Shown: one piece after another, positions 5,881-36,253 of the stretch | How the letters are laid out: each line of letters begins with the position of its first letter | Numbering within the stretch: the first letter of the stretch is position 1 | DNA from: Escherichia phage BB1 | Sequence record: NC_106597.1 | Reading direction: 5' to 3' (one strand) | DNA: 64,000 nucleotides | Program-made: the position numbers and the translations under genes | The notes under the pieces: model-generated | Database searches by the model: none | What the model was told of the DNA's origin: nothing | What the model saw: only the letters and a program-made list of their open reading frames with translations

Positions 5881-6297
5881 ATGAGTAAATATGGTTTTGT
5901 AAATAACGGACTTAATCAAAGTATGGGCTCCCAGCAGCCCATTCCGGGTCTGGATAACCCCTACTTACAACAGTTGCAACAGCGTTTAGCAGAAGCGCAA
6001 CAGATGCAGCAACAACTCCAGCAAAACCCTGGAAGTGTGAGTCCTATGCAAATGATGCAGCAAATGAGCGGGCAGTCGCAAATGCCTCAACAAATGCAGC
6101 AACAGGTGCCTCAGCAGCAAGTTCAGCAACAAACCCAACAACCGCAGGTTTCTGCGGAAGGACAGGCAGTACTAGCCCTTTTCGAAGACTTCGCAAAGAC
6201 AGAGGATGGGAAACAGCTTGTATCACTTATGGGTAAGTTTAATAGCTTCTGCCAAAGCCAAGTTGCAAAAGCTCAAAATGGGGGTAGTAACTCCTAA
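5881..6297 (+). CDS. glutamine-rich low-complexity protein (138 aa)
   Basis: GGGGAGGAG RBS; long poly-Q/QM stretches. Confidence 0.55.
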   Translation: MSKYGFVNNGLNQSMGSQQPIPGLDNPYLQQLQQRLAEAQQMQQQLQQNPGSVSPMQMMQQMSGQSQMPQQMQQQVPQQQVQQQTQQPQVSAEGQAVLALFEDFAKTEDGKQLVSLMGKFNSFCQSQVAKAQNGGSNS

Positions 6298-6306
6298 GGA
6301 GGAAAT

Positions 6307-6501
6307 ATGTGTTGCAGAAAATCTGTTTCGTGCTGCCCAATGCCTGTAGCACGTTGTTGCTCTCCAGCAATGTTTACACAAATACCGGCGTTCAATCCCT
6401 TTGCCTTTAAGCCTACTCTTATCCTGCCCCCTAGAGTAGATTTTCAGTCAAGATTGGCCTCCCGTATGGGTGGTTGCTGTACACCGAGAGTATGGTTCTA
6501 A
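6307..6501 (+). CDS. small Cys-rich protein (64 aa, four CC dipeptides)
   Basis: TAAGGAGG RBS 5 nt upstream of ATG; followed by intrinsic terminator. Confidence 0.45.
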   Translation: MCCRKSVSCCPMPVARCCSPAMFTQIPAFNPFAFKPTLILPPRVDFQSRLASRMGGCCTPRVWF

Positions 6502-6511
6502 ACCAAAAACA

Positions 6512-6548
6512 AAAGCCCCTGCCGAAAGGTAAGGGGCTTTTTCTTTTG
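6512..6548 (+). terminator. rho-independent terminator
   Basis: Hairpin aaagcccct...aaggggcttt followed by T-run. Confidence 0.65.
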
Positions 6549-6556
6549 CCTTAAAT

Positions 6557-6592
6557 ACAGAAAAGCCCGCGCTCTCGTAGGAAACGCGGGCT
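6557..6592 (-). terminator. rho-independent terminator (minus sense), downstream of SPFH gene
   Basis: GC-rich hairpin gcccgcg...cgcgggc with T-run in minus sense. Confidence 0.55.
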
Positions 6593-6616
6593 TGGTTCGA
6601 AGATTACGTGTAACTA

Positions 6617-33093: not shown

Positions 33094-33402
33094 ATGAGCG
33101 AACAGGTAAATCAAAACTATGAAGGACACGTTGATGACCAGTCCATCATACTTTGGGAGAAGGAGGGAGAACAAGTAAGACTAACAGTATCTGAATTTCG
33201 TGGGAATCTATACATGGGTATTCGTTACTGGCTTCTTGATATTAATGATGAATGGTTTCCAACGAAATCTGGCTTCTCTTTTCCTTACACCCTAGAAACA
33301 ACATCACAGCTTTTCTATGCGTTTACACAGATTCTTAGCGAATCTGAGGTTTTACATGAAGTACAGAAACGAGCTGAAGAACTCAAAGCCAAGAATGCCT
33401 AG
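33094..33402 (+). CDS. PC4-like (transcriptional coactivator p15 fold) ssDNA-binding protein
   Basis: Segment VRLTVSEFRGNLYMGIRYW...FPTKSGFSF matches the PC4/YdbC pattern (...FKGK.LIDIREYW...KGIS). Confidence 0.55.
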   Translation: MSEQVNQNYEGHVDDQSIILWEKEGEQVRLTVSEFRGNLYMGIRYWLLDINDEWFPTKSGFSFPYTLETTSQLFYAFTQILSESEVLHEVQKRAEELKAKNA

Positions 33403-33419
33403 TTCTTGGCTTTTTCTTT
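33388..33419 (+). terminator. rho-independent terminator
   Basis: gccaagaa...ttcttggc hairpin followed by TTTTTCTTT. Confidence 0.65.
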
Positions 33420-33429
33420 ATAAATGTAT

Positions 33430-33458
33430 TTGCTTTCAACTCAGTTTTATTATATAAT
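33430..33458 (+). promoter_or_regulatory. early promoter (TTGCTT-17-TATAAT)
   Basis: -35 33430-33435, -10 33453-33458. Confidence 0.65.
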
Positions 33459-33489
33459 ATTTATATAAATTGATGAGAGATATAAATAA

Positions 33490-34461
33490 ATGACTAATGT
33501 AAAAGACTTTATTAAACGCTGTCAAGAAGCATATTATCAAGGTATGTCTTTAATCTCTGATGAGGAGTATGATTGCCTGGTAAAACGCTTCCCATTAGAA
33601 GAAGAGATCGGACCTAAGGGTGATATTCCACATCTATATCGTATGTATTCTTTACAGAAAGTTTATTATAATCGTGGAGATAAACCCCCATTCAACCCAT
33701 TAGGTCAGGTAGAAACTGATAAGTTAGATGGTTGTGCGATTTCTCTGTTATATATTAATGGAGAATTTGTTCAAGCACTAACTCGTGGCAATGGTATTCT
33801 GGGAAATGATGTCACAAGCAACGTAAGATTGCTGAATATCCCTAAAAAGATTTCCCAAAAAATACCTACTCAAATCACTGGTGAAGTTCTAATTACAAAA
33901 GAAGTAGAAAATAAACGTAACTTTGCCTCTGGTGCTATTAACCTCAAAGATAGCGATGATTTCGTACAGCGTATCGGGGAAGGTGGTTTAATCTTCGTCG
34001 CATATGGCATTCAGTGTTCTGCTGAATCTGTAGGTATTACAGAAGCATATTTAAAAGATATGCTTTGGCTGGAGAATGAGAACTTCTTAACAGTTGTTAA
34101 TGTACGTTCCTTCTTTAAATGGATTCCGACGGACGGTAAAGTTGTTCGTATTAATGACAACAACAAATTCTTCCGTGAAGGCTGGACTAATAAATTCCCT
34201 CGCGGGGCGTTCGCTATTAAAGAGGATGAAGAAGGCGAGATTACAACTCTTACTAAAGTTGAATGGCAGGTAGGGGCTTCTGGTAAAGTAACTCCAGTTG
34301 GTTATTTCGAACCGGTAATTATTGATGATGCTACAATTGTTAAAGCGACTCTTAATAACGTTGATTATATTAACTCTCTCGATCTAGAGATCGGTTGCCA
34401 GATTCGAGTGATTCGTGCTGGTGGTGTAATCCCGTGCATAGTAGAGCGAGTATACGATTAA
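33490..34461 (+). CDS. ligA: NAD-dependent DNA ligase, N-terminal (adenylation/OB) subunit
   Basis: KxDG adenylation motif (ETDKLDGCAISLLY), TRGNGILGNDVT; ends before the zinc-finger/HhH/BRCT part. Confidence 0.8.
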   Translation: MTNVKDFIKRCQEAYYQGMSLISDEEYDCLVKRFPLEEEIGPKGDIPHLYRMYSLQKVYYNRGDKPPFNPLGQVETDKLDGCAISLLYINGEFVQALTRGNGILGNDVTSNVRLLNIPKKISQKIPTQITGEVLITKEVENKRNFASGAINLKDSDDFVQRIGEGGLIFVAYGIQCSAESVGITEAYLKDMLWLENENFLTVVNVRSFFKWIPTDGKVVRINDNNKFFREGWTNKFPRGAFAIKEDEEGEITTLTKVEWQVGASGKVTPVGYFEPVIIDDATIVKATLNNVDYINSLDLEIGCQIRVIRAGGVIPCIVERVYD

Positions 34462-34511
34462 TACATAACCCTTTGCTACCCATCTACCATATCGGAATTA
34501 TAAAGTGGTTA

Positions 34512-34540
34512 TTGACATTTTCGCCGCTTAGGTATATACT
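34512..34540 (+). promoter_or_regulatory. sigma70-type promoter (TTGACA-17-TATACT) within the ligase split
   Basis: -35 34512-34517, -10 34535-34540; shares TTGACATTTTCGC with 4782-4794. Confidence 0.5.
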
Positions 34541-34604
34541 ATTATCATTCAGTTGAGGGATAGAAAGTTATGGCGAGGGTAAGCAAAGTTAGTTAAAATT
34601 GTAG

Positions 34605-34633
34605 TTGCTAAATGCTTAAATACTTGCTATAAT
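34605..34633 (+). promoter_or_regulatory. early promoter (TTGCTA-17-TATAAT) upstream of ligase C-terminal subunit
   Basis: -35 34605-34610, -10 34628-34633. Confidence 0.65.
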
Positions 34634-34660
34634 ATTTATATAAATTGATAAGGAAGAAAT

Positions 34661-35443
34661 TTGATGAAAATCGAAATTCCAACACAATGTCCCTCTTGTG
34701 GTTCTAAGCTAGATCTTGTCAACGGACAATTATTCTGTCGGAATAAGTCCAACTGTCCAGCGCAATCAAGCAAGTTAATTGAGAACTTCTGTTCAAAAAT
34801 GAAGTTAAAGGGCTTTGGCCCAAAAACTATTGAGAAGCTGGAGCTGACGAAGATTTCAGAACTATTTTACCTAACCGAAGAAGATTTGGTTAGAGCCGTG
34901 GGTAGCAAGGTTGCCGCTAAGTTAATTAGCGAATTAAATACTAAAGTTCGCGGAGACATTGACTTTGGTTCAGTTCTCGGTTCTTTAGGAATCCCTCTAA
35001 TTGGAGAGGTTGCAGCAAAGAAATTATCCCAAAATTGCACTAGCTTCCATGATGTGAAGGCTGACGGCAAGGCTGGAGAAAATTATAAAGCCTGGCTAAA
35101 TTCCCCACAAGGCAAGGATGTTATCGAATTACCGTGGAAATTTTCAACTGGTATTAAGGGCACTAAAGCTGACGTCATCATTACAGATGAATTAGTTGCC
35201 CAGCCAAATGGAATCGCGGTATGTATTACCGGATCTTTGCAAGATTTTGCAAATCGAACGGATGCAACAAACTATTTAGAAAGTCTAGGGTATACGGTTA
35301 AGAAATCCGTTACCAAAGACGTCAAATACCTAATCTGTGAGGATGAATCGAAGCGTTCTTCCTCATCTTATAAGAAAGCCGAAACGAATGGGATAGAAAT
35401 CCTGTCGATTAAAGAACTATTGGAGAAAAATAATAATGTCTAA
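34661..35443 (+). CDS. ligB: NAD-dependent DNA ligase, C-terminal (Zn-finger/HhH/BRCT) subunit
   Basis: Cys4 zinc finger (CPSCGSKL...CRNKSNCPAQ), HhH-like GIPLIGEVAAKKL, BRCT-like C-terminus. Confidence 0.8.
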   Translation: MMKIEIPTQCPSCGSKLDLVNGQLFCRNKSNCPAQSSKLIENFCSKMKLKGFGPKTIEKLELTKISELFYLTEEDLVRAVGSKVAAKLISELNTKVRGDIDFGSVLGSLGIPLIGEVAAKKLSQNCTSFHDVKADGKAGENYKAWLNSPQGKDVIELPWKFSTGIKGTKADVIITDELVAQPNGIAVCITGSLQDFANRTDATNYLESLGYTVKKSVTKDVKYLICEDESKRSSSSYKKAETNGIEILSIKELLEKNNNV

Positions 35444-36203
35444 ACTGAACTGGAACGTAGAAGGTGTAACCGAGTCTCTGAAAGCAAAAGCCACTGCTCT
35501 GGGTGTTTCTGTAATCTCTCAAGAACAAGTAGCTGCTATCGCTACTGAACTGGCTGCTGAAACTGGCAAAGATGTTACTGCTCGCTCTGTTGGCTCTAAA
35601 CTGCGTAAAGAAGGTTTTGAAGTACAGAAAGCTAACGAAGTACAGAAATCCCCGTGGACTCCTGAGCAGGAAGCTGAACTGGTTGATTTCCTGAACGCTC
35701 ATGCTGGTCAGTATACCTATGCTGAAATCGCTGCTGCTGTAGCTGGTGGTCAGTTCGGTGCTAAACAGGTACAGGGTAAGATCCTGAGTCTGGAAATGAC
35801 TGCTTCTGTTAAACCAACTGAAAAAGCTGCTGCTGTTCGTTCCTTTACTCCGGATGAAGAAACTGATTTTGTTAATCAGGTTGTTGCTGGTGCTACTATT
35901 GAAGCTATCGCTGCTCACTTCGGTCGTAATATCAAGCAGATCCGTGGTAAAGCTCTGAGCCTGCTTCGTGAAGGTCGTATCGCTGCTATGCCGGTACAGG
36001 AAACCTCAAGTGCTAAAACTCGTGAAGATCTGTTAGAAGGTCTGGATCTGGCTAACATGACTGTTGCTGAGATCGCTGAGAAAACTGGTAAATCTGAGCG
36101 CGGTGTTAAATCTATGCTGTCTCGTCGTGGTCTGGTTGCTAAGGACTATGATGGTGCCGCTAAGCGTGCTAAACTGGATGCAAAAGCTGCGGCTGCTGAA
36201 TAA
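35436..36203 (+). CDS. Ala-rich protein with four internal HTH-like repeats; putative abundant DNA-binding protein
   Basis: Four repeats of about 30 aa (e.g. YTYAEIAAAVAGGQFGAKQVQGKILSLE / ATIEAIAAHFGRNIKQIRGKALSLL); by eye codon choice resembles highly expressed genes. Confidence 0.55.
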   Translation: MSKLNWNVEGVTESLKAKATALGVSVISQEQVAAIATELAAETGKDVTARSVGSKLRKEGFEVQKANEVQKSPWTPEQEAELVDFLNAHAGQYTYAEIAAAVAGGQFGAKQVQGKILSLEMTASVKPTEKAAAVRSFTPDEETDFVNQVVAGATIEAIAAHFGRNIKQIRGKALSLLREGRIAAMPVQETSSAKTREDLLEGLDLANMTVAEIAEKTGKSERGVKSMLSRRGLVAKDYDGAAKRAKLDAKAAAAE

Positions 36204-36220: not shown

Positions 36221-36253
36221 AAGGGGAGGGGGCTATGCTCCTTCCCCTTTTTG
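36221..36253 (+). terminator. rho-independent terminator
   Basis: aaggggaggggg...ccttcccctt hairpin followed by TTTTG; overlaps the first track-ORF start at 36235. Confidence 0.6.

Follow-up and report, generated by a model that had tools for sequence, protein, structure and literature searches.

The ligase genes and the break between them

Positions 33490-35443 of the window, a 64,000-nucleotide stretch of Escherichia phage BB1 (sequence record NC_106597.1), hold two ligase reading frames, ligA and ligB, with a promoter-bearing spacer between them. The features of the region are as follows.

33094-33402: gene of a PC4-like regulator upstream of ligA (ORF matching Pfam PC4)
33385-33413, +: terminator-like hairpin ending the upstream PC4-like gene (12-pair stem followed by a T run)
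33430-33458, +: early-type ligA promoter, TTGCTT-17-TATAAT (sequence; a T5 RefSeq 'promoter' feature lies at the same place)
33490-34461, +: ligA, catalytic subunit, 323 aa (ORF list, Pfam, alignment to E. coli LigA)
34462-34663, +: non-coding spacer, 202 nt (stops in all frames, no ORF, no terminator-like hairpin in a simple pattern scan)
34512-34540, +: promoter corresponding to T5 'P-K 28b', TTGACA-17-TATACT, 11/12 (pattern scan, T5 annotation)
34605-34633, +: promoter corresponding to T5 'P-K 28a', TTGCTA-17-TATAAT with an upstream TG, 10/12 (pattern scan, T5 annotation)
34664-35443, +: ligB, DNA-binding subunit, 259 aa, starting with ATG (ORF list, Pfam, alignment)
35436-36203, +: gene of a D5-like DNA-binding/transcription factor, whose ATG lies inside the end of ligB (8-nt overlap)
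36221-36249, +: first terminator-like hairpin downstream of the spacer promoters (13 pairs, 8 of them G-C, and a T run)

Domain content, catalytic and metal-binding residues, the break point, conservation and promoter sequences were established here by sequence analysis. The product of ligA matches Pfam DNA_ligase_aden (E 2.7e-23; 83.2 bits against a cut-off of 27) and, over residues 252-321, DNA_ligase_OB (E 3.8e-22; 78.4 bits against a cut-off of 32.9), and its KxDG motif, K78-L-D-G at 33721-33732, aligns with K115-L-D-G of E. coli LigA, which agrees in both domains and coordinates with the original prediction of an adenylation/OB frame. Domain Ia of the phage protein is short (about residues 1-46); its Y15, D24, Y27, and D28 align with the NMN-binding Y22, D32, Y35, and D36 of E. 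coli LigA, Y15, Y27, and D28 being invariant in the aligned phage subunits and E. coli, and Y16 occupies the position of E. coli H23.

The downstream frame had been predicted to encode the zinc finger, HhH, and BRCT modules, with a lack of ligase homology as one way in which the prediction could fail. Its product aligns to E. coli LigA residues 401-666 (E 1e-16), contains a BRCT domain at about residues 184-255 (E 5.7e-8; 33.3 bits against a cut-off of 21.3), and has four cysteines (C9, C12, C25, and C31) that align with the zinc-finger cysteines of E. coli. Its Pfam HhH matches lie under the curated cut-off (24.5 vs 27); the same region aligns to LigA 402-529 (E 4e-11). The domains and the end of the frame are therefore as predicted, but not its start: the proposed TTG at 34661 is almost certainly not used, and ATG 34664 is to be preferred because the ORF is 780 nt long in all annotated relatives and MKI is the N-terminus of PDB chain 9hu3_B. 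A Shine-Dalgarno sequence, AAGGAAG at 34650-34656, lies ahead of this ATG. Single-sequence AlphaFold2 modeling of LigB gave a mean pLDDT of 34.

Alignment to full-length LigA, suggested as a check, placed a clean break in the linker that joins the OB fold to the zinc finger, around residues 393-401 of the E. coli protein: phage LigA, ending in VERVYD, stops at approximately residue 393, the LigB start maps to residues 394-401, and residue 2 of LigB (N-terminus MKIEIP) aligns with residue 401. Between them, the two proteins comprise every LigA domain and lack about 6 residues of the linker. A typical LigA family member is a single polypeptide, whereas here two ORFs lie 202 nt apart, which defines the T5-type variant (the LigA and LigB subunits of Demerecviridae), characterized by the linker break and by a ribosome-binding site and start codon of the second gene's own.

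At the DNA level, ligA is 95.8% and ligB 96.9% identical to the T5 genes. Among 26 relatives, the first, second, and third codon positions are 97.6, 99.2, and 85.9% identical in ligA and 97.2, 99.0, and 92.6% identical in ligB, and third positions are 5-15 times more variable than second positions in both genes; judged by this comparison, both ORFs are under strong purifying selection.

The spacer, its promoters, and transcription

The gap had been put at about 200 bp; counted to the TTG it is 199 nt long, and counted to the ATG 202 nt. The window and T5 share a 100% identical spacer, and with a mean identity of 99.3% among the 26 relatives the spacer is more conserved than the coding DNA. As originally stated, it holds no intron-like ORF: the ORF list contains none of at least 30 aa wholly within the gap. 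An Rfam search of 33300-35600 returned zero matches in the gap, the sole match elsewhere being a chance-level miRNA upstream of ligA.

Several other candidate elements were rejected. A small RNA or riboswitch in the spacer found no credible Rfam match and no consensus fold over five lineages (RNAalifold); in the window, the leader that begins at the putative K28b start has an unusually stable fold (z -3.78), but in two of four relatives it folds no better than shuffled sequences. A mini-ORF after K28b (34571-34597, MARVSKVS) lacks its ATG in a Klebsiella phage, in which a 53-aa ORF at 34395-34556 is also disrupted, by a 5-nt deletion. Insertions inside the gap were likewise dismissed for close relatives, in which size differences sit upstream of ligA instead.

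Both predicted promoters lie exactly where they had been placed and match named T5 promoters, the 75-nt T5 features P-K 28b and P-K 28a mapping to 34492-34566 and 34585-34659, respectively. The names rest on the T5 RefSeq annotation because a literature search for K28a/K28b promoters yielded only unrelated papers. Both are near-consensus sigma-70 promoters; promoter-like matches are not significant by themselves in such AT-rich DNA (5 found vs 8.1 expected), and these two have the top scores in 3.4 kb and are invariant as far as a Klebsiella phage. The -10 hexamer and leader of the ligA promoter (33453-33477) recur in the ligB-proximal promoter as a direct repeat of 25 nt, and a 22-nt -10/leader motif occurs five times in the window (0.00 expected). 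The shared 25-nt stretch suggests that ligA and ligB have the same early-type promoter design. The 3' arm of a hairpin overlaps or adjoins the -35 element of the ligB-proximal promoter, with arm sequences that differ by lineage; such a hairpin could be an added regulatory element.

The hairpin at 33385-33413 probably insulates ligA from upstream transcription, and the early-type promoter would drive ligA. A simple pattern scan revealed no terminator-like hairpin in the gap, although Rho-dependent or weak termination may occur there; transcription from the ligA promoter therefore probably runs on into ligB and D5, in addition to transcripts from the two strong promoters P-K28b and P-K28a. Given the 8-nt overlap, ligB and D5 would form one tightly packed unit downstream of these promoters, and the hairpin at 36221-36249 is the probable end of the ligA and ligB-D5 transcripts; in phage EASG3, terminators are annotated at the matching place after D5. 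A search of the T5 transcriptome literature found no usable data. The possibility of independent regulation of the two halves, raised in the original prediction, is thus borne out in part: ligB has two extra promoters, but the ligA promoter is of the same early-type design and the gap has no terminator. The most that can be inferred is that ligB-D5 is probably transcribed more than ligA, which amounts to different dosage and not to independent timing or control.

The OB/zinc-finger split is common to every T5-clade relative examined, with the same break in all lineages aligned and gaps of 52-3820 nt; the nearest relatives outside the clade have a fused ligase. A near-consensus promoter follows directly after the stop of the first gene in every short or enterobacterial-type gap read, even in those of 52-74 nt, and the 192-nt gap of the Providencia phage homologue also carries tandem promoters. 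The record of Salmonella phage INF11 shows ligA as two annotated pieces, apparently owing to a local frameshift there. The suggestion to look for a mobile element at this position in related phages had a divided outcome: in enterobacterial T5-like phages the gap contains only promoters and no ORF, whereas some distant relatives have endonuclease-like gap ORFs (T5orf172 in L072 and L073, TnsA-like in L087). NAD/ADP-ribose-related genes (NADAR, DprA-like) are also found in the gap of some distant relatives. Two unrelated lineages (L087 and L089) are apparently split at the same linker. We suggest, as a tentative idea that may well prove wrong, that the OB/zinc-finger linker of NAD+ ligases is a recurrent, tolerated cut-and-insert site in phages, and that the split is kept for an internal promoter boosting ligB and the abundant D5-type factor, perhaps after arising when a cassette carrying a promoter or an endonuclease was inserted.

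Probable assembly of the two subunits

Taken together, these features very probably represent the ligA/ligB pair of a T5-like phage (Tequintavirus), encoding one NAD+-dependent DNA ligase as two polypeptides that form a non-covalent clamp, with the break in the OB/zinc-finger linker and with ligB-D5 fed by read-through and by the two spacer promoters. LigA (domain Ia, nucleotidyltransferase, and OB) would bind NAD+, adenylylate itself on K78, and carry out the chemistry; LigB (zinc finger, HhH, and BRCT) would supply the grip on nicked DNA that belongs to one-piece LigA; and the two would join non-covalently to rebuild the LigA-type clamp around the nick. The two-subunit ligase of the original prediction agrees with the annotation of T5 and hundreds of relatives and with a solved two-chain homologue. 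A physical A-B heterodimer is supported indirectly, both homologue chains sharing PDB entries 9hu3 and 9i5i; what is said here of the A-B contact and of the activity relies on the fact that 9HU3 and 9I5I exist and not on a description of them, a literature search (9HU3; split or heterodimeric phage NAD+ ligase) having found no relevant paper. It is on these grounds that we infer assembly and ligation by the two proteins of this phage.

The two proteins might instead have separate jobs, LigA being a minimal stand-alone ligase and surplus LigB mainly an independent DNA-binding/BRCT adaptor, which might, for instance, shield or tag the nicks naturally present in T5 DNA or bring in replication proteins. 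In favor of this, small one-module ligases occur in other viruses, ligB is served by two further strong promoters and is closely linked to D5 rather than to ligA, and in relatives the halves can lie as much as 3.8 kb apart, with unrelated genes in between. We nevertheless consider this division of labor improbable, as both genes co-occur in every T5-clade genome examined, the A and B chains were deposited together in the same PDB entries, and a LigN protein cut at the same boundary (domain Ia, adenylation, and OB) retains normal adenylylation but does not ligate (PMC1684257), so that LigA alone should not ligate. An extra role for surplus LigB may exist alongside the two-subunit ligase.

Rejoining of the halves into a one-chain enzyme, by an intron, a split intein (trans-splicing), or ribosomal bypassing, has hardly any probability. 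Phages do use introns, inteins, and translational bypassing, as exemplified by T4 gene 60, and the cut falls neatly within a linker; against this, the gap has no credible Rfam match and is filled by two promoters, the VERVYD and MKIEIP ends bear no intein-like extension while all LigA domains are present, the PDB lists two separate chains (339 and 248 aa), and the gap of relatives varies over the range given above and contains unrelated genes. A sequencing artefact or a decaying gene, in which a frameshift or recent mutation broke a one-piece ligase and turned one or both halves into pseudogenes, has nothing specific in its favor beyond the INF11 annotation and is already refuted by the comparative data: 202 nt separate the halves, which are in different frames, and each of the three gap frames has several stop codons, so that no single frameshift could merge them; the arrangement recurs in 475 independently sequenced phage records (megablast matches), the annotated ones carrying two ligase genes, and in all 60 or so IMG/VR T5-clade loci; third codon positions vary far more than second positions in both ORFs; ligB has its own Shine-Dalgarno sequence and ATG; and a two-chain homologue has been solved.

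The two-gene ligase is thus real and was rightly interpreted in the original prediction, and it is already known, since the split ligase has been annotated since 2005 and the two-chain enzyme of a relative is in the PDB. The impact on annotation is small: the window should be labeled ligA, P-K28b, P-K28a, and ligB, as in T5. As a naturally occurring essential replication enzyme that works in two chains severed between domains, the split ligase has some relevance to protein engineering and to the question of how phage genes come to be fragmented, but both points are already on record; the comparative additions (the common break point, the gap promoters, spacer conservation, and possible independent splits) are modest leads and not discoveries.

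Comparison with known systems

Phage 'genes in pieces' can arise by insertion of a free-standing endonuclease gene, as reportedly in the nrdA gene of Aeromonas phage Aeh1, split with mobE. As in genes of this type, the cut through an essential enzyme falls between domains, and the separate chains would still function; unlike them, the gap in the window holds promoters only, with no ORF of at least 30 aa, no credible Rfam match, and no intein-like protein ends beside it, and the endonuclease-like gap ORFs of relatives are only candidate homing genes.

One-piece E. coli LigA (PDB 2OWO) has six modules, all of which are found in the same order in the window pair, with about 30% identity, K115 corresponding to K78, and the domain Ia residues and the four zinc-finger cysteines conserved. 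The phage pair is shorter (582 vs 671 aa), consists of two polypeptides in place of one, and has an 18-residue deletion after domain Ia.

The split ligase of Providencia phage PR1/PSTCR5 (PDB 9HU3, 9I5I) has the same two-chain architecture as that in the window, its chains being listed as 'DNA ligase (NAD(+))' (339 aa) and 'DNA ligase subunit B' (248 aa), the latter 100% identical to the PR1/PSTCR5 protein. LigA residues 4-323 match chain A (E 3e-103) and LigB residues 1-255 match chain B (E 3.7e-81) of 9hu3/9i5i, and the concatenated A+B proteins are about 56% identical (MAFFT).

The closest described system is T5 ligA/ligB (T5.116/T5.117; AAU05253/AAU05254), while the best match to the window is Escherichia phage slur09 (98.2%). 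The T5 RefSeq order, namely ligA, promoters 'P-K 28b' and 'P-K 28a', ligB, and D5, is that of the window, and the neighbors are also the same: the PC4-like regulator lies upstream, and D5 and the D6 helicase follow downstream. The window and T5 agree in genes, order, break point, and spacer, and the window differs from T5 only by point differences, most of which are synonymous.

Two ORFs and the site of the split

The NAD-dependent DNA ligase of the window is encoded by two ORFs located on the same strand but in different frames, separated by a 202-nt spacer with several stop codons in each frame. The description of a two-gene ligase in the original prediction proved accurate, and its interpretation essentially right.

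33490-34461, ORF A (ligA), 323 aa, NAD-dependent ligase adenylation domain (Pfam, E 2.7e-23) and OB-fold (E 3.8e-22)
34462-34663, spacer between ligA and ligB
34664-35443, ORF B (ligB), listed as beginning at TTG 34661

In the alignment with E. coli LigA, K78-L-D-G of ORF A lies opposite the active-site K115-L-D-G, and the N-terminus of ORF A corresponds to a shortened domain Ia. E. coli residues Y22, D32, Y35, and D36 contact the NMN moiety of NAD+; their counterparts Y15, D24, Y27, and D28 are kept in ORF A. ORF B aligns with E. coli LigA residues 401-666 (E 1e-16), carries four cysteines at the zinc finger positions, and matches BRCT above the Pfam cut-off and HhH below it. All annotated relatives use the ATG at 34664 as the start codon, and the solved homologue of ORF B begins with MKI, matching this start.

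LigA residue 318 is placed opposite E. coli residue 388, and therefore the LigA end (323) falls at about residue 393, while LigB residue 2 lies opposite residue 401. Multiple alignment with fused ligases locates the cut inside the short linker leading from the last OB strand to the first zinc-finger cysteine, with about six linker residues missing from LigA and LigB together. Judged from these alignments, the split is clean and lies at a domain boundary.

Promoters and transcription of the spacer region

33385-33413, terminator-like hairpin just before the ligA promoter
33430-33458, early-type promoter of ligA, TTGCTT-17-TATAAT
34512-34540, promoter P-K 28b, TTGACA-17-TATACT
34605-34633, promoter P-K 28a (ligB-proximal), TTGCTA-17-TATAAT
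36221-36249, next terminator-like hairpin downstream, after D5

The pattern scan recovered both spacer promoters at exactly the positions originally proposed and found no terminator-like hairpin between them. Promoter-like matches in this AT-rich DNA were not enriched (5 observed vs 8.1 expected), and thus the scan alone proves nothing. The window spacer is 100% identical to that of T5, whose RefSeq record, the source of the names, labels the two sites 'promoter P-K 28b' and 'promoter P-K 28a'; at the level of sequence, it is this comparison, not the scan, that establishes both promoters. We take them to be the T5 early promoters characterised experimentally in the 1980s.

Across 26 Tequintavirus and Epseptimavirus loci, the mean identity to the window was 99.3% for the spacer (91.6% invariant columns), 94.3% for ligA, 96.3% for ligB, and 97.7% for D5. 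The non-coding spacer is thus more conserved than either ligase gene, reaching the level of second codon positions, and ranks among the top two 200-nt segments for conservation over 11 kb. What little variation there is falls within ~30 nt of the ligA stop; from 34492, the point at which the T5 promoter features begin, the spacer is essentially invariant. This conservation is probably explained by two strong promoters with long footprints.

Transcripts from the ligA promoter would extend across ligB-D5, with additional ligB-D5 transcripts starting at the two spacer promoters; the two ligase halves would differ in dosage, not timing. The D5 start overlaps the ligB stop by 8 nt (35436-35443; ATGTCTAA), an arrangement suggesting that translation of ligB is coupled to that of the D5-like factor, a protein with a sigma-70 region 4-like helix-turn-helix.

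The ligA promoter and the ligB-proximal promoter share a 25-nt stretch comprising the -10 hexamer and leader, present as a direct repeat (33453-33477 and 34628-34652, 24/25 identical); this -10/leader motif occurs 5 times in the window vs 0.00 expected. Between the two copies lie ligA and P-K 28b, the first gap promoter. If the copies recombined, ligA would be excised precisely and ligB would come under control of the ligA promoter; none of the relatives showed this deletion.

An 8-codon mini-ORF (MARVSKVS, 34571-34597) with an SD-like GAGGGA lies just 3' of P-K 28b and has the promoter/SD/ATG layout of other early promoters; it is probably a relic, since its ATG is lost in a Klebsiella phage sequence. 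RNA from the likely P-K 28b start (34547-34670) folds at -26.1 kcal/mol (z -3.78, better than 200/200 shuffles). Leader folding was no better than chance in 2 of 4 relatives, and RNAalifold found no shared structure of the leader across lineages. In several lineages, the 3' arm of an inverted repeat overlaps the -35 element of the ligB-proximal promoter, the arm sequences differing between lineages, namely in PM135 (10 nt, CTTAGCAAGT/ACTTGCTAAG, L007 3259-3291) and in the relative L042 (10 nt, AGCAAATACA/TGTATTTGCT, 6079-6106). In Noelle, a 12-nt repeat (AATTTAGCAGTT/AACTGCTAAATT, L009 4251-4302) lies 5' of ligB, its position relative to a -35 being read from sequence, with no promoter mapped in this phage. 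The window repeat is only 6 nt (TAAGCA/TGCTTA), with the 3' arm (34613-34618) just past the -35, in the spacer.

Distribution of the split and gap contents in relatives

The split also occurs in Epseptimavirus, Sugarlandvirus (Klebsiella), Novosibvirus (Proteus), and Vibrio T5-like phages, and in every T5-clade locus among 78 IMG/VR loci where both halves could be located (three T5-clade loci end before ligB).

Length of the gap between the ligase halves
About 20 marine contigs: 52-74 nt
Providencia: 192 nt
Sugarlandvirus: 199 nt
Tequintavirus and Epseptimavirus: 202 nt
Proteus PM135: 344 nt
Other relatives: 443, 684, 802, 932, 1107, 1135-1375 nt
Marine contig L072: 3820 nt

The nearest relatives outside the T5 clade are single ORFs. 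A compact fused group (loci L079-L083; 579-582 aa, 32-35% identity; e.g. L079 4974-6734) has zinc-finger cysteines replaced or lost (e.g. ...IEQRHAEEAVGYALRRVG...), and other phages have ordinary one-ORF ligases of 632-694 aa. In a rough neighbour-joining tree, the split clade is monophyletic and sister to the compact group. L087 and L089, two loci from outside the T5 clade, are also divided at the OB/zinc-finger linker, which suggests independent events on a tree that is weak at 25-30% identity.

Regarding a mobile element at this position, raised in the original prediction, the gap contains only promoters in the window, as it does in all T5-like phages of enterobacteria. A near-consensus promoter lies directly 3' of the ligA stop in all short or enterobacterial-type gaps read (TTGACT-17-TATAAT in L053 and L052, TTGACA-17-TATATT in L089), and Providencia and Proteus phage gaps carry tandem promoters. 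Other gaps contain genes: a 55-aa ORF in PM135; a TnsA-like endonuclease-domain protein exactly between the ligase halves in L087 (6049-6840, E 1e-11); and T5orf172-domain, endonuclease-like ORFs in the marine contigs L072 and L073 (6584-6946), with Pfam scores of 22 bits, just over the cut-off, and PHROG 'endonuclease' matches at E 1e-11 to 1e-12. The gap genes of L072 (5918-9555) further include an oxygenase, a methyltransferase, and a carbamoyltransferase. Because relatives' gaps hold such genes, the split site accepts insertions, some of them nuclease-like; nothing in these gaps demonstrates an origin of the T5 split from such an element.

A Proteus-phage relative (L043) encodes a NADAR-domain protein in the gap (5953-6609, E 1.8e-31), Vibrio phages encode DprA-like proteins (phrog_768), which we suspect to be SLOG-type domains, together with small ORFs without assigned function. 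Besides L043, NAD/ADP-ribose-related gap genes of these two kinds lie in L046 (6093-6785) and L009 (3627-4187). These genes form an NAD/ADP-ribose theme beside an NAD+-consuming enzyme.

The segment 5' of ligA (33403-33489) also varies among relatives (compared segments: L002 1690-1962, L001 1690-2157, L005 1808-2008, and L006 1028-1552). In many of them, the early promoter and ligA are separated by one or two additional small ORFs (phrog_35018, phrog_8267), and in Klebsiella phage FZ41 this segment contains a gene for an HNH-AP2 endonuclease; neither extra ORFs nor an endonuclease gene is found there in the window or T5.

Comparison with known split ligases

By megablast, the 2.3-kb region finds matches in 475 phage records, nearly all of them from T5-like phages of Escherichia, Salmonella, and Klebsiella (best match slur09, 98.2%), and annotated records among them list two ligase genes, often as 'subunit A' and 'subunit B'. 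The split ligase is described in three papers, one of which (PMC4319617) does so for phage Stitch. An NAD+ ligase truncated at the same boundary, LigN, adenylylates normally and cannot ligate (PMC1684257); by analogy, LigA would need LigB. PDB entries 9hu3 and 9i5i each comprise a 339-aa 'DNA ligase (NAD(+))' chain, matching ORF A (E 3e-103), and a 248-aa 'DNA ligase subunit B' chain, matching ORF B (E 3.7e-81) and 100% identical to the protein of the T5-like Providencia phages PR1/PSTCR5. The split ligase of the window is therefore already known, and there is a solved structure of a homologous two-chain enzyme; the arrangement is that of the textbook-annotated T5 split ligase with T5's named promoters.
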